DNA of 64,000 nt, taken from assembly GCA_964016885.1 (NCBI GenBank), contig OZ024757.1:15438001-15502000 (forward strand), written 5' to 3'. This stretch comes from Eledone cirrhosa (taxonomy: Eukaryota). Shown here piece by piece: positions 34,375 through 59,860 of this stretch. Under the pieces are notes generated by a model that did no database searches, was not told the origin of the DNA, and was given only the letters and a program-made list of their open reading frames with translations. How positions within the stretch are numbered: the stretch's first letter is position 1; each line of letters opens with the position of its first letter. The position numbers and the translations under genes were made by a program.

Positions 34375-34490
34375 CTGCTTTACATATCCACTCTAAATAG
34401 CCATTTAATTCTCGCTCTATTTGTTGCTGCCGACGCAATTTTAAAAAAGCTCTTCGGTTTTCTACTCTCTCTCTCTCTTTTGCGAATTCT
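34375..34490 (-). CDS. Cav2: Cav2 exon, I-II linker with alpha-interaction domain (116 nt)
   Basis: [48 protein letters not shown] is the Cav2-type AID/QxxER motif (Cav1 has QQLEEDLKGY). Confidence 0.97.
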
Positions 34491-35532
34491 CTGAAAAAGA
34501 GAAAAATTGACATAATAAAAACATCATCATCATCGTCATAATCATCACCTTCCCCTTCATCATCATCATCATCATCAATAATCATTTGCTTTCCTGAATT
34601 GGACAGGTTGTCAAATTTTGAGACCGGATGAGTTAGAGAATCTTATTTCATTCAAACATTTCATCTTTTTCATGGTTACTAAGCCCTTCCTAATGCCAAC
34701 CACTTTACAGAGTGTACCTGGTGCTATTTATTTTGGTGTCAGCACGGTCCCTCTACAGTGGTGTCAACCATAAAGTAAATTACTCCAAGATATTGCATGA
34801 GTGTAAAGACACAGAGCATAAATAATAATTTCTACGATAGGCAAAAGGCCAGTAATTTGGTGGATGGGGAAAGTCGATTAAATTGACGCCAGTACATTAC
34901 TGGTACTTTATTTTATCGACCTTGTAAGGATGAAAGGCAAAGCTAACCTTGGTGGGATTTGAACTTACAACGTAAAGGGCCGCAACTCCATGCCTCAAAG
35001 CATAGTGTCCGACGCTCTACCGATACTGCGAATCCACTTCCCTTCCCAGAGCATAAATAATTGTTTTTACTTTAGGCACAAGGCCAGCAATCTTTTACAG
35101 AAGGGAGAACTGGTTAAATCGACCCCAGTGCATTACTGGTGCTTTATTTTATTGGCCTCATAAGGATGAATGTCAAAGCTAACCTCGGCAGGATTTGAAC
35201 TCTGACTGTAAAGAGACATAACTCTATGCCACAAAGCATAGTGTCCAATGCTCTACTGATACTGCCAATCCATCACACTTCAAATACCATAAATAATAAA
35301 ACCAATGATTAAGACAAAATTCACTATATTTTCATATGTCTTACACACATTTTCACATATGAAATAAAGTGTAAAGATTCTCTGCTCATGTAGCCAAGTA
35401 GAACTTTAATCCAAACATCTATAAGAAAGATGTTGCACTGACAAGCTACAGAAATAACAATTTCGCCTGCATAACGCCTGTATTTGATATGAAAATGTTG
35501 TACATTTAAGCAAATTTTGTATATATATGCAT

Positions 35533-35563
<31 letters not shown>

Positions 35564-35759
35564 ACCAAAGATTAGTATGGTTCGTTGTGTATATATATAT
35601 AGTCTGGGAATTATTGCTGTAAAATTTACCATGACCCACGTGTAGTCGTCTCCATTACAAATAATGCACATAAACACACACACACATATATATATATATC
35701 TATATGTATATATATATATATAGAAGGATTTAAATGGATACAGTTCAGTTAAAAGGAGT

Positions 35760-35880
35760 TTATTGACACGTGTTTCAATAACAGTTACATAACCTGAAAA
35801 CAGCTGCTATCTACAAAGTATTAGTTATGCAGACATTCAATATTTCAATGTTATTATTAACTGTCATTTCATCAGAATAA
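35760..35880 (-). ncRNA. Type I hammerhead ribozyme, mirror copy
   Basis: Reverse complement of 36828-36948; predicted cleavage after position 35765. Confidence 0.8.
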
Positions 35881-36827
35881 TTTTATTGAGAACCTGTTTG
35901 GTTTTTATAGAGAATATTAGGAGGGAGGGGTGAAGTTGTTAGAAGAATAGTTAAGGGAGTGGTTTTTTGATAGCAGTGAGAATTTTTGGTGGCAGTGAGT
36001 AATTAGATTCCCATCTGTTGTTTTGACATTTTTATAGAATATATTATTATATATTATTTGGCGTTGGTTATTTTTCTAAATCTATAGAAGGATTAGAGAT
36101 AGTATAGATATGCATGGTTGGTTTTGTGTTTGCACTTAATTAACATTCAGACTTAAATTTTTCTTTCAAGTGTACGTATCCTTTCGCCCACGCATTCACA
36201 CACAAACATATATGCACACCTCTACAAAATACATATACTCACATACACATACTTACATGCTCATACTTACATACATATATACATGCACATATATATATAC
36301 ATATATATACATATATATATGTACATACCTACGCATTCATGTGTATACATTTTCATACTCAACATGAATGCGTATGTATGTACATATATATATGTATATA
36401 TATGTATATATATATATATGTGCATGTATATATGTATGTAAGTATGAGCATGTAAGTATGTGTATGTGAGTATATGTATTTTGTAGAGGTGTGCATATAT
36501 GTTTGTGTGTGAATGCGTGGGCGAAAGGATACGTACACTTGAAAGAAAAATTTAAGTCTGAATGTTAATTAAGTGCAAACACAAAACCAACCATGCATAT
36601 CTATACTATCTCTAATCCTTCTATAGATTTAGAAAAATAACCAACGCCAAATAATATATAATAATATATTCTATAAAAATGTCAAAACAACAGATGGGAA
36701 TCTCATTACTCACTGCCACCAAAAATTCTCACTGCTATCAAAAAACCACTCCCTTAACTATTCTTCTAACAACTTCACCCCTCCCTCCTAATATTCTCTA
36801 TAAAAACCAAACAGGTTCTCAATAAAA

Positions 36828-36948
36828 TTATTCTGATGAAATGACAGTTAATAATAACATTGAAATATTGAATGTCTGCATAACTAATACTTTGTAGATA
36901 GCAGCTGTTTTCAGGTTATGTAACTGTTATTGAAACACGTGTCAATAA
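36828..36948 (+). ncRNA. Type I hammerhead ribozyme with long stem II
   Basis: TTATT-CTGATGA-AATGACAGTTA...TAACTGTTATT-GAAA-CACGTG-TC-AATAA; predicted cleavage after C36943 (GUC). Confidence 0.8.
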
Positions 36949-37150
36949 ACTCCTTTTAACTGAACTGTATCCATTTAAATCCTTCTATTTTCTCTGGATT
37001 ACTTTTGAAACTACAACTGGAACCGTCGAGCAAACTCTACGTGAGCTGTCCATCTACTGTGTGTAATATTCATATTACAACACTACGGAAAATACTGTAT
37101 ATATATATATATATATATATTCAGTGAAAGAGAGAGAGAATTGTACTCAC

Positions 37151-37254
37151 CCACTAAGGACACCAAGAACTAAGTTGAGCATAAAAAATGAACCCAATAT
37201 AATAAGAGGTATGAAATATATCCAGTTGTAAGAGTCTCCAAAAGCATCATTTGT
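37151..37254 (-). CDS. Cav2: Cav2 exon, repeat I S6 (104 nt)
   Basis: [35 protein letters not shown]; tttcag acceptor, gtgagt donor. Confidence 0.97.
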
Positions 37255-37439
37255 CTGAAATAGGAAAAGACATTTAATTAACAAGTCTGGAATTAATTAC
37301 AAGTAATGAATTAATTGAATTGTGTTTAACTATAATGGAAACAGAATTTTATGTGTATGTTGGTCAGAAAAAAGAAGTCAATACAGGCTGGTGAGTGGAC
37401 ATAAGTGATCCTTATAAAAGAAACCTGAGGAAATTATCT

Positions 37440-37666
37440 TTAACCACCCTTTAGAATTTACATTATGTTTACTTTTGTATTTTTGTGGTGAACACTTAAT
37501 CTCACTGAATTATCTCACATAATATTGAATCTATGAGATTTTGTTATTATTTATTTTGAGAACAATACCTTAACATCAATATGAACAGCCAATTATGGCC
37601 GGTTTGAACAGAAAGACGTGAGAGAATTCTGACTGGATACTGTCAGTTTAAATGCCAAAGGATTAA
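37440..37666. mobile_element. piggyBac-type MITE, diverged copy in opposite orientation
   Basis: ttaaccacccttta...tgccaaaggattaa; interior matches the reverse complement of 46249-46455. Confidence 0.65.
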
Positions 37667-37784
37667 ACCAATGATATAGCCAAAATGCTTACACCAGAGT
37701 GCACTCCACTAAAGGCACCAAGAGCTAATTGCTCCAATTCTCTTGAACCACATATATGACTCTCCTTCATCCTGATGCATGATT

Positions 37785-38035: not shown

Positions 38036-38653
38036 AATATATAATGCGCCCACACCCTCCCACTGCAAAAAGAAACACCCACCCCACACTGTAAAGTGGA
38101 CGTGTAGGTGCCACAGAAAAAAGCACCCAGCACTCACTGTAAATGAGGTTGGTGTTAGGAAGGGCATCCAGCTGTAGAAATCAAGCCAGAATCAGTTCCC
38201 GTATGAGCAAGACATGGTCAGCTGACCAGCTACTGCCCACAACAGGACAACCCATCTAACCTATGTTAACATTGAAGAACAGACGTAAAATGGTGATGAT
38301 GATGATGTAAGTATGCACATGCACACACACACACACATATATACATATACATATGTACGAATGGGTCATATCGGACATTAATAATAATCAATTCATTTAT
38401 TATTATTAATGTTCAATATAATCCATACGTACATATGTATATGTATATATGTGTGTGTATGTATATATATGTGTATATCTATATATGTGTGTGTGTATAT
38501 ATATATATATTTGTATATATCTATATATGTGTGTGTATGTATATATATGTGTGTATATATATATATGTGTGTGTGTATGTATATATATATGTGTATATCT
38601 ATATATGTGTGTGTATGTATATATATATGTGTGTGTGTATGTATATATATGTG

Positions 38654-39486: not shown

Positions 39487-39692
39487 ATAATATAATACCT
39501 GGGTCCATCCTTCCATAGTTACACACTGGAACACCGTCAACATCGCGAAACCCATGTTGTCAAAACTGGTAATTCCATAATTTGGGCCATTCCAATTGTA
39601 TCGACATTTAGCTATATTTGTTCGACACTGATAACTATTCGATGCGTCTCCGCAAGGCCGTATTGTTTCTTCGTCACCATATTCTATGTTGT
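39487..39692 (-). CDS. Cav2: Cav2 exon, repeat I turret and pore loop (206 nt)
   Basis: [15 protein letters not shown]...[34 protein letters not shown]; the selectivity-filter Glu lies in TMEGW; ttgcag acceptor, gtaagt donor. Confidence 0.97.
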
Positions 39693-39794: not shown

Positions 39795-40113
39795 ATTTTA
39801 CGTCCGCTTTTTCCCTGCTTGCAAGGGTGGGACGGGAACTGATTCTGGCTTGATTTCTACAGCTGGATGCCCTTCCTAACACCAACCTCATTTACAGTGA
39901 GTGCTGGGTGCTTTTTTGCCGTGGCACCTCCACGACCACTTTACAGTGGAATGATAGGGACCACAGTCCCTATCATCTCATTTCTACAGCTGAGTAAACT
40001 GGAGCAATGTGAAATAAAGTGTCTTGCTCAAGGAAACAACACATTACCTGATCTGAGAACTGAACTCACAACCTTTCGATTGCAAGGCCAATGCTCTAAC
40101 CACTAAGCCATGT
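39795..40113 (-). mobile_element. CORE-like SINE with long tail ending in (ATG)n
   Basis: Near-identical copy at about 61636-61948; the tail segment ctggatgcccttcctaacaccaacc also occurs at about 38100-38310, 40930-41070, 54820-54980 and 63680-63870. Confidence 0.75.
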
Positions 40114-52051: not shown

Positions 52052-54350
52052 AGTGTGTGTGTGTCTGAGTGTGTATGTGTGCGAGTGTGTGAGTGTGAAT
52101 GTGAGAGTGTGTATGTGTCTCTGAATGTGTGAGTGTGAATGTATCTCTGAATGTGTGAGTGTGTATGTGTCTCTGAATGTGTGAGTGTGTATGTGTGAGT
52201 GTGAATGTGTCTCTGAATGTGTGAGTGTGTATGTGTCTCTGAATGTGTGAGTGTGAATGTGTCTCTGAATGTGTGAGTGTGTATGTGTCTCTGAATATGT
52301 GAGTGTGAATGTATCTCTGAATATGTGAGTGTGAATGTATCTCTGAATGTGTGAGTGTGTTTGTGTCTCTGAATGTGTGTATGTGTATGTATCTCTGAAT
52401 GTGTGAGTGTGTATGTGTCTCTGAATGTGTGAGTGTGTATGTGTCTCTGAATGTGTGAGTGTGTATGTGTCTCTGAATGTGTGAGTGTGAATGTATCTCT
52501 GAATGTGTGAGTGTGTATGTGTCTCTGAATGTGTGAGTGTGTATGTGTCTCTGAATGTGTGAGTGTGTATGTGTCTCTGAATGTGTGAGTGTGAATGTAT
52601 CTCTGAATGTGTGAGTGTGTATGTGTCTCTGAATGTGTGAGTGTCTATGTGTATGTGTCTCTGAATGTGTGAGTGTGTATGTGTCTCTGAATGTGTGAGT
52701 GTGTATGAGTCTCTGAATGTGTGAGTGTGTATGAGTCTCTGAATGTGTGAGTGTGTATGTGTCTCTGAATGTGTGAGTGTGAATGTGTCTCTGAATGTGT
52801 GAGTGTGTATGTGTCTCTGAATGTGTGAGTGTGAATGTGTCTCTGAATGTGTGAGTGTGAATGTATCTCTGAATGTGTGAGTGTGTATGTGTCTCTGAAT
52901 GTGTGAGTGTGTATGTGTCTCTGAATGTGTGAGTGTGTATGTGTCTCTGAATGTGTGAGTGTGTATGTATCTCTGAATGTGTGAGTGTGTATGTGTCTCT
53001 GAATGTGTGAGTGTGTATGTGTCTCTGAATGTGTGAGTGTGTATGTGTCTCTGAATGTGTGAGTGTGTATGTGTCTCTGAATGTGTGAGTGTGTATGTGT
53101 CTCTGAATGTGTGAGTGTGTATGTGTCTCTGAATGTGTGAGTGTGAATGTATCTCTGAATGTGTGAGTGTGTATGTATCTGTGAGTGTGTATGTGTCTCT
53201 GAATGTGTGAGTGTGTATGTGTCTCTGAATGTGTGAGTGTGTATGTGTCTCTGAATGTGTGAGTGTGAATGTATCTTTGAATGTGTGAGTGTCTATGTGT
53301 CTCTGAATGTGTGAGTGTGTATGTGTCTCTGAATGTGTGAGTGTGTCTCTGAATGTGTGAGTGTGTTTATGTCTCTGAATGTGTGAGTGTGTCTCTGAAT
53401 GTGTGAGTGTGTTTGTGTCTCTGAATGTGTGTATGTGTATGTGTCTCTGAATGTGTGAGTGTGTATGTGTCTCTGAATGTGTGAGTGTGTATGTGTCTCT
53501 GAATGTGTGAGTGTGTATGTGTCTCTGAATGTGTGAGTGTGTCTCTGAATGTGTGAGTGTGTATGTGTCTCTGAATGTGTGAGTGTGTCTCTGAATGTGT
53601 GAGTGTGTATGTGTCTCTGAATGTGTGAGTGTGTCTCTGAATGTGTGAGTGTGTATGTGTCTCTGAATGTGTGAGTGTGAATGTATCTCTGAATGTGTGA
53701 GTGTGTATGTGTCTCTGAATGTGTGAGTGTGTATGTGTCTCTGAATGTGTGAGTGTGTATGTGTCTCTGAATGTGTGAGTGTGTATGTGTCTCTGAATGT
53801 GTGAGTGTGAATGTGTCTCTGAATGTGTGAGTGTGAATGTATCTCTGAATGTGTGAGTGTGTATGTGTCTCTGAATGTGTGAGTGTGTATGAGTCTCTGA
53901 ATGTGTGAGTGTGTATGTGTCTCTGAATGTGTGAGTGTGTATGTGTCTCTGAATGTGTGAGTGTGTATGTGTCTCTGAAAGTGTGAGTGTGTATGTGTCT
54001 CTGAATGTGTGAGTGCGTATGTATCTCTGAATGTGTGAGTGCGTATGTGTCTCTGAATGTGTGAGTGTGTATGAGTCTCTGAATGTGTGAGTGTGTATGT
54101 ATCTCTGAATGTGTGAGTGTGTATGTGTCTCTGAATGTGTGAGTGTGTATGTGTCTCTGAATGTGTGAGTGTGTATGTGTCTCTGAATGTGTGAGTGTGT
54201 ATGTGTCTCTGAATGTGTGAGTGCGTATGTGTCTCTGAATGTGTGAGTGCGTATGTGTCTCTGAATGTGTGAGTGTGAATGTATCTCTGAATGTGTGAGT
54301 GTGTATGTGTCTCTGAATGTGTGAGTGTGTCTCTGAATGTGTGAGTGTGG
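52000..54350. repeat. 26-bp minisatellite with a 20-bp variant, grown out of (TG)n
   Basis: GTGTGAGTGTGTATGTGTCTCTGAAT repeated; the left edge grades into pure TG. Confidence 0.97.
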
Positions 54351-56889: not shown

Positions 56890-59860
56890 CCTCTTACATA
56901 GTACCTAGTATTACAGGGCTACCATAGCTGCCTCTGTACCAAGCAATATGGGACTATCATAGCTCCATATTACAGGGTCTGTACCTAGTAATACAGGGCT
57001 ACCCTTGCTCTCCCTGTACCTTGTAATACAAGGCTGTAATAGCTCCCTCTTATATAATCTGTACCTAGCAATACAGGGCTACCATCGCACCCTCTTACGC
57101 AGTCTGTACCTAGTTATAAAGGGCTACAATAGCTCCCTCTTACATAGTCTGTACCTAGTTATAAAGGGCTACCATAGCTCTCTCTTACATAGTCTGTACC
57201 TAGTTATAAAGGGCTACAATAGCTCCCTCTTACATAGTCTGTACCTAGTTATAAAGGGCTACCATAGCTCCCTCTTACATAGGCTGTACCTAGTTATAAA
57301 GGGCTACAATAGCTCCCTCTTACATAGTCTGTACCTAGTTATAAAGGGCTACCATAGCTCCCTCTTACATAGTCTGTACCTAGTAATAAAGGGCTACCAT
57401 AGCTCTCTCTTACATAGTCTGTACCTAGTTATAAAGGGCTACCATAGCTCCCTCTTACATAGTCTGTACCTAGTTATAAAGGGCTACAATAGCTCCCTCT
57501 TACATAGTCTGTATCTAGTAATACAGGGCTACCATAGCTCCCTCTTACATAGTCTGTATCTAGTAATACAGGGCTACCATAGCTCCCTCTTACATAGTCT
57601 GTACCTAGTTAAATAGGGCCACAATAGCTCCCTCTTACATAGTCTGTACCTAGTTATAAAGGGCCACAATAGCTCCCTCTTACATCGTCTGTACCTAGTA
57701 ATACAGGGCTACAATAGCTCCCTCTTACATAGTCTGTATCTAGTAATACAGGGCTACCATAGCTCCCTCTTACATAGTCTGTACCTAGTTATAAAGGGCC
57801 ACAATAGCTCCCTCTTACATAGTCTGTACCTAGTTATAAAGGGCCACAATAGCTCCCTCTTACATCGTCTGTACATAGTAATACAGGGCTACCATAGCTC
57901 CCTCTTACATAGTCTGTACCTAGTAATACAGGGCTACCATAGCTCCCTCTTACATAGTCTGTACCTAGTAATACAGGGCTACCATAGCTCCCTCTTACAT
58001 AGTCTGTACCTAGTTATAAAGGGCTACCATAGCTCCCTCTTACATAGTCTGTACCTAGTTATAAAGGGCTACCATAGCTCCCTCTTACATAGTCTGTACC
58101 TAGTAATACAGGGCTACCATAGCTCCCTCTTACATAGTCTGTACCTAGTTATAAAGGGCTACCATAGCTCCCTCTTACATAGTCTGTACCTAGTTATAAA
58201 GGGCTACCATAGCTCCCTCTTACATAGTCTGTACCTAGTAATACAGGGCTACCATAGCTCCCTCTTACATAGTCTGTACCTAGTTATACAGGGCTACCAT
58301 AGCTCCCTCTTACATAGTCTGTACCTAGTTATACAGGGCTACCATAGCTCCCTCTTACATAGTCTGTACCTAGTTATACAGGGCTACCATAGCTCCCTCT
58401 TACATAGTCTGTACCTAGTTATACAGGGCTACCATAGCTCCCTCTTACATAGTCTGTACCTAGTTATACAGGGCTACCATAGCTCCCTCTTACATAGTCT
58501 GTACCTAGTTATACAGGGCTACCATAGCTCCCTCTTACATAGTCTGTACCTAGTTATAAAGGGCTACCATAGCTCCCTCTTACATAGGCTGTACCTAGTA
58601 ATACAGGGCTACAGTAGCTCCCTCTTACATAGTCTGTACCTAGTTATAAAGGGCTACAATAGCTCCCTCTTACATCGTCTGTACCTAGTTATAAAGGGCT
58701 ACCATAGCTCCCTCTTACAGTCTGTACCTAGTAATACAGGGCTACAATAGCTCCCTCTTACATAGTCTGTATCTAGTAATACAGGGCTACCATAGCTCCC
58801 TCTTACATAGTCATAACCTAGTCATAAAGGGCTACCATAGCTCCCTCTTACATAGTCTGTACCTAGTTATAAAGGGCTACCATAGCTCCCTCTTACATAG
58901 TCTGTACCTAGTTATAAAGGGCTACAATAGCTCCCTCTTACATAGTCTGTACCTAGTTATAAAGGGCCACAATAGCTCCCTCTTACATAGTCTGTACCTA
59001 GTTATAAAAGGCTACCATAGCTCCCTCTTACATAGTCTGTATCTAGTAATACAGGGCTACCATAGCTCCCTCTTACATAGTCTGTACCTAGTTATAAAGG
59101 GCCACAATAGCTCCCTCTTACATAGTCTGTACCTAGTTATAAAGGGCTACAATAGCTCCCTCTTACATAGTCTGTACCTAGTTATAAAGGGCTACAATAG
59201 CTCCCTCTTACATAGGCTGTACCTAGTTATAAAGGGCTACAATAGCTCCCTCTTACATAGTCTGTATCTAGTAATACCGGGCTACCATAGCTCCCTCTTA
59301 CATAGTCTGTACCTAGTTATAAAGGGCCACAATAGCTCCCTCTTACATAGTCTGTACCTAGTTATAAAGGGCCACAATAGCTCCCTCTTACATAGGCTGT
59401 ACCTAGTTATAAAGGGCTACCATACCTCCCTCTTACATAGGCTGTACCTAGTTATAAAGGGCTACAATAGCTCCCTCTTACATAGTCTGTACCTAGTTAT
59501 AAAGGGCCACAATAGCTCCCTCTTACATAGTATGTACCTAATAATACAGGGCTACCATAGCTCCCTCTTACATAGTCTGTACCTAGTTATAAAGGGCCAC
59601 AATAGCTCCCTCTTACATAGTCTGTACCTAGTTATAAAGGGCCACAATAGCTCCCTCTTACATAGGCTGTACCTAGTTATAAAGGGCTACCATACCTCCC
59701 TCTTACATAGTCTGTACCTAGTTATAAAGGGCTACAATAGCTCCCTCTTACATAGTCTGTACCTAGTTATAAAGGGCTACAACAGCTCCCTCTTACATCG
59801 TCTGTACCTAGTTATAAAGGGCTACAATAGCACTCCTTTATATAGAGCATATCTAGTTTT
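56890..59860. repeat. 45-bp minisatellite, about 65 units
   Basis: GTACCTAGTTATAAAGGGCTACCATAGCTCCCTCTTACATAGTCT repeated; degenerate ends. Confidence 0.98.

Follow-up and report, generated by a model that had tools for sequence, protein, structure and literature searches.

The long inverted repeat in a Cav2 intron of Eledone cirrhosa very probably arose through the head-to-head insertion, into a (TA)n run of that intron, of two truncated 3' ends of a Penelope-like retrotransposon (PLE). The reverse transcriptase (RT) likely copied one source RNA from two fixed starts onto both strands of the cut target, and the product is probably a neutral passenger. The hairpin is, most likely, an ordinary insertion footprint of its family. 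All coordinates given without a locus number refer to the window, the whole 64,000-nucleotide stretch of contig OZ024757.1 that was analysed.

Layout and setting of the inverted repeat

A repeat search placed the two halves of the repeat at 35720-36332 and 36376-36988 (613 nt, 99% ungapped), with inner arm ends at 36342 and 36362 and 19 nt between the arms. Gapped alignment revealed two substitutions and one 4-nt indel, the latter located in the (TA)n part. Both analyses agree with the original prediction of a near-perfect hairpin of about 620 bp with a 19-nt spacer; the arms run from 35720 to 36342 and from 36362 to 36988. The extent required revision: the insertion continues through a tail as far as 37098, and the loop consists of element sequence belonging to the left arm. 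The whole insertion thus covers 35720-37098 and is flanked on either side by (TA)n runs. The loop sequence is kept by the left arm alone, the arms are joined with an overlap of 1-2 nt, and the junction sequence occurs once in the assembly. The features are as follows.

34376..34492 (bounds approximate), minus strand: host-gene exon of Cav2 for the I-II linker, including the AID
35686..35719, no strand: (TA)n target/tail at the short end
35720..36363, minus strand: left arm, formed by the 5'-truncated 3' end of a Hydra-clade PLE and terminating at the fixed short end
35765..35875, minus strand: type I hammerhead in sense orientation relative to the Cav2 pre-mRNA, with its core at 35875-35869 and a cleavage site predicted after 35765
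36343-36361: loop, extra upstream element sequence that is part of the left arm
36362-36363: arm junction
36362..36988, plus strand: right arm, likewise a 5'-truncated 3' end of this PLE, in antisense orientation relative to the pre-mRNA
36833..36948, plus strand: type I hammerhead with CUGAUGA, 92-nt rod-like stem II, GAAA, 2-bp stem III and 5-bp stem I
36989..37098, plus strand: 110-nt tail, on the right arm only
37099..37120, no strand: (TA)n target/tail at the long end
37151..37254, minus strand: Cav2 exon encoding IS6, host gene

Cav2 is encoded on the minus strand, and the hairpin edge at 36988 lies 162 nt into the intron that follows the IS6 exon (37254-37151), matching the distance of about 160 nt given by the original prediction. 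The AID exon, with 37 of 38 amino acids identical to Cav2.2, starts near 34490, some 1.2 kb beyond the hairpin. Other repeats were observed in the window. The same intron contains two tandem copies of an abundant SINE-like repeat (34812-35297), while a short non-repeat segment among the (TA)n runs next to the left arm (35560-35690) was unmatched in the window or in the fetched loci. Tandem arrays comprise a 49-bp satellite at 17-27223 (564 copies, 94% matches), a 45-bp array of 63 copies at 57014-59831 and a 26-bp array of 84 copies at 52191-54330.

A Hydra-clade family and its hammerhead motifs

The arm is a dispersed repeat with 1436 candidates in the genome, 40 of which were scored at 93-100%, and a 23-nt motif from its hammerhead has 526 exact genome matches (control: 0). 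Upstream, longer copies extend into an ORF that encodes RT followed by a C-terminal endonuclease: in L019 (3696-6016) and L014, the RT motifs are followed by IYKC...YYVG, of the GIY-YIG type. The near-full copies L019, L014 and L064 contain RWK/RWR, DKT, YRDD, CxCX5C, CxxC..E and N..CxH, and lack CCHH; two CCHH-like regex matches fall outside the EN domain. RWK was read in L019, L064 and L013, and RWR in L014. DKT, a modified DKG, was present in six of the seven loci scanned, L015 being 5'-truncated before the motif, and the CxCX5C linker (CNCTYPDNC or CNCTYPENC) was likewise found in six of seven. All copies read are broken ORFs, and a Pfam search of four ORF pieces returned no RT or GIY-YIG match. 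Terminal arm ends pass into (TA)n, in four cases after an intervening (CT)n or one other base, and the hammerhead sits near the 3' end of the family copies.

These features are those described for the C-terminal EN+ PLEs of the Hydra clade (Craig et al. 2021, PMC8557442, section 11), with which the family shares RWK, DKT, CxCX5C, CxxC, CxH, the absence of CCHH, the (TA)n target and the 3' hammerhead. The family protein also matches the published Hydra alignment block by block when the two are compared by eye. Judged on these motifs and on the comparison by eye with the alignment, the arm represents the 3' terminus of a PLE of the Hydra clade, and the family appears to be a new one within that clade. 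Departures from the clade as described there concern length: the unit measures about 3.5 kb (in L019, 3522 nt including a 3' UTR rich in microsatellites) against a tendency to less than 3 kb, and the tail 110 nt against 30-40. The RT motif is YRDDV in most copies (for instance, L019 4747-4760), YRDDA in L064 and YRDDG in L030; in the Hydra rows of the published alignment that were compared, it is YRDDG or YRDDA (PMC8557442).

Four other identities were considered and rejected. Hydra-1_Obim has a different hammerhead sequence; a MITE or DNA transposon is incompatible with the asymmetric ends and the RT-bearing parent; a non-LTR retrozyme, described as non-coding tandem hammerhead units, does not fit an arm that belongs to an ORF-bearing 3.5-kb element; and Naiad is set aside by the C-terminal endonuclease and DKT.

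Both arms carry the mirror hammerheads of the original prediction, with a stem II of 92 nt (about 90 had been stated) and a palindromic stem III. On the plus strand, CUGAUGA occupies 36833-36839, with GAAA at 36932 and C17 at 36943; in each arm, stem III consists of 2 bp around the palindromic loop ACACGTGT, followed by GUC. The description of the motif as canonical holds for the core, since CUGANGA, GAAA and UH are present with three stems, and 97.7% of the cells were paired in 42 copies. It does not hold for stem II, which is closed by A-U instead of G10.1-C11.1, nor for the MFE fold, from which stems I and III are absent. The 92-nt insert folds as a rod (fold z -4.2). Covariation in stem II among the 42 copies is weak, with one pair changing C-G > U-G > U-A and a score reached by 28 of 500 shuffles, and an Rfam scan of the window gave no match at the gathering score.

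Among the closest published counterparts are the type I hammerheads of metazoan PLEs (Cervera and de la Pena 2014, PMC4209133), which share the short palindromic helix III and are reported as dimer-dependent and of low activity. The motif described here differs from them in its much longer helix II and in the A-U pair that replaces G10.1-C11.1. Between the core halves there are 92 nt, compared with roughly 12-24 nt in the Hydra motifs listed in PMC8557442. Another locus (L006:1087-1211, the same place as part of L022) contains a further hammerhead, unrelated to this one, whose stem II is also rod-like and about 88 nt long; it follows an ORF about 70% similar to the window's PLE family and is nested in a copy of that family. 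Several Hydra families in this genome may thus share long stems II; on such hammerheads, we found nothing on point in the open-access literature.

In the pre-mRNA, the antisense arm would be made first and is predicted to pair with the sense arm over about 620 bp, burying the hammerhead: the sense motif is predicted to be fully paired with the antisense arm (-216 against -26.7 kcal/mol). The proposal that the palindrome silences its own ribozyme is, to this extent, supported. The masking is not evidence of design, because by symmetry an antisense arm precedes whichever strand is transcribed. In published tests, a single metazoan PLE hammerhead whose palindromic stem III is short showed no cleavage as a monomer (PMC4209133), so by analogy there may be little activity to silence here. 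Hammerhead cleavage is, moreover, described as dispensable for PLE insertion in vitro (PMC11167929).

Origin of the two arms

Inverted PLE copies, one-sided tails and opposite-strand hammerhead pairs are already in print. Dual PLE hammerheads 100-700 bp apart on opposite strands have been reported (PMC4209133), and Penelope-13_HM of the Hydra clade has an inverted 5'-truncated copy with hammerheads on both strands (PMC8557442), as here. The inverted pLTRs of other PLEs (PMC3846280; PMC11167929) likewise lie head to head with the tail on one, and are linked to two RT start sites and to cutting and extension of both strands. Pairing of short with long ends and allele sharing between arms are counted here; we found no such counts in the accounts given in PMC3846280 and PMC11167929.

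Among the first 100 motif matches listed, 40 lie in 20 diverging pairs less than 5 kb apart, and there are two tandem and no converging pairs (hand count). After removal of duplicates of one place, we examined 56 other loci, of which 33 are two-armed head to head; as 22 of the 56 had been fetched as listed close pairs, this proportion is not a frequency. In 32 of the 33, one short end is paired with one long end, the sole exception (L074) having two short ends; L084 and L086 are two further short-plus-long pairs. The head-to-head layout with one end of each kind is therefore the rule in this family. In the tandem copies L019, L064 and L014, the tail continues into the following unit, through its 5' UTR to its ORF. 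Arms exceed 1 kb in some pairs (L026, L065), so the hairpin in the window is not the longest.

The arms of each insertion belong to the same source lineage. Using 21 diagnostic columns, seven of which represent a single deletion, we found the two arms of a locus to carry the same allele at 253 of 255 subfamily positions (29 pairs, window included), whereas shuffled arm pairs disagree at 31% on average, with a minimum of 8.8% in 2000 shuffles. Arms of one locus differ at 1.43% of sites, and 105 changes are private to one arm against 24 that are shared; general homogenisation of the arms is thus weak, most changes being private. No excess of A>G on the element strand, a trace of edited templates, was detected (0.0034 vs 0.0037 for T>C). 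Each arm also holds sequence absent from the other in 18 of the 29 non-tandem pairs and in the window. Together with the shared subfamily alleles, this indicates that the two arms were likely copied from one source. The templates of the two cDNAs would be either a single source RNA or two RNAs transcribed from the same source locus; the allele agreement fits both.

We infer that the GIY-YIG endonuclease cut both strands of the (TA)n run, that synthesis of one cDNA would have begun at the short end and that of the second 110 nt farther in the 3' direction, and that both would have stopped early before being joined head to head. These steps have counterparts in the anole PLE protein, which cuts and extends both strands in vitro and starts at two internal RNA sites bracketing the tail (Frangieh et al. 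2024, PMC11167929). The same source reports no strand difference in the start sites, which counts against this reading. On twin priming in Penelope, nothing on point was found in the open-access literature.

A different route to the second arm would be fold-back or self-priming of a cDNA or antisense RNA, or later palindrome formation at the DNA level, without RNA being primed a second time. For palindromic junctions of PLEs, Arkhipova et al. (2013, PMC3846280) proposed, and favour, self-priming on an antisense template. In our dataset, the stop points of the two arms are often within 2-40 nt of each other, and a 10-bp duplication is found in the two window arms only; both observations speak for this route. 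A fold-back requires, however, that one arm contain all of the other. The left arm of the window has about 20 extra upstream nucleotides and the right arm the 110-nt tail; the 18 non-tandem pairs mentioned above are likewise non-nested, and in four loci (L033, L047, L050 and L086) the long arm is tail only, without overlap between the arms. In 21 of 32 pairs, or 18 of 29 without the tandem cases, it is the short-end arm that extends farther towards the element's 5' end, as it does in the window (hand count). The loci studied here do not fit the self-priming model, and fold-back is unlikely at the window locus since each arm holds sequence missing from the other.

The copy in the window appears recent. 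Its arms differ at 1 of 471 scored sites, against the family mean given above (Poisson P ~0.009), a likeness we attribute to youth. Its two rare substitutions recur in both arms of L084, which places it in a minor source lineage; from these sequences, that lineage is probably young. Given the private 10-bp duplication and the high likeness of the arms, arm-to-arm conversion or polishing may also have contributed.

RNA editing and significance of the insertion

A duplex of about 620 bp is a likely ADAR substrate if the intron is transcribed. It would likely be hyper-edited like other repeat dsRNA, which does not imply an effect on the exons. A further proposal accepts the same origin and holds that the hairpin now acts as an editing inducer, recruiting ADAR and raising A-to-I recoding in the Cav2 IS6 or AID exon. 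The idea is reasonable by analogy with a mammalian precedent at a similar distance: in Gabra-3, the intronic inducer is located 150 nt downstream of the site it serves, and inverted Alus can take its place independently of sequence (Daniel et al. 2014, PMC4053975). Both cases involve a long intronic duplex about 150 nt downstream of a neuronal-channel exon. The window duplex, which begins 162 nt after the IS6 exon, is a long duplex within hundreds of nucleotides of an exon, and editing of squid introns and UTRs is reported to overlap repeats (PMC9068888).

Several observations weigh against such a function. The insertion appears to be young, its lineage is a minor one, and similar hairpins are numerous in the family; moreover, repeat-directed editing in squid is described as a ubiquitous class, separate from neural recoding (PMC9068888). 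A scan for duplexes between exon and partner sequences gave no window that stood out, the best reaching -53.6 kcal/mol and the next five -48.7 to -45.8 kcal/mol (no shuffle control). Nor is the hairpin the sole dsRNA nearby, because an inverted SINE-like pair flanks the preceding exon. We consider the inducer reading quite improbable. There is similarly only a slim chance that its broader form would hold, in which this young PLE insertion would be a Gabra-3-type inducer behind the IS6 exon, with recoding of the channel gate increased in carriers only, the antisense arm would block the long-stemmed hammerhead, and self-masking two-armed insertions of this kind would quite generally give rise to new editing sites in the lineage. 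The insertion is, we infer, probably neutral.

The inverted SINE-like pair lies at 38087-38202 and 39832-39948 (117 nt, 97%, with an 86-nt perfect core), on either side of the Cav2 pore-loop exon near 39519, and constitutes a second possible dsRNA in the pre-mRNA.

That the hairpin is a fold-back artefact of the assembly is very unlikely, because its flanks are unmirrored, the exons continue in order, the arms differ at three places, and its ends are the two fixed ends of the family, each adjoining a separate (TA)n run, an arrangement shared with 32 other loci. No contig bridged the junction in three runs of one sample, an absence that proves nothing. In Logan contigs of four runs covering 35250-37700, the repeats were skipped around the junction and no empty-site joint was listed, and a junction check found 0 reads in one RAD run. 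The variant at 36950 was also absent from all contigs, though carried by four other loci, so that absence from contigs is uninformative. Summed contig depth reached tens of thousands over the arms and about 9 in the flanks, values that were not taken as copy number.

As an insertion footprint, the hairpin adds to the Hydra clade one family in which both the hammerhead stem II and the tail are unusually long. The step that gives rise to inverted PLE copies is listed as open by Craig et al. (PMC8557442), and the genome-level counts presented here favour two-strand priming on one source RNA over fold-back. If the editing link were true, a transposon footprint would be tuning a neuronal calcium channel, and the insertion would provide a natural experiment with and without it.
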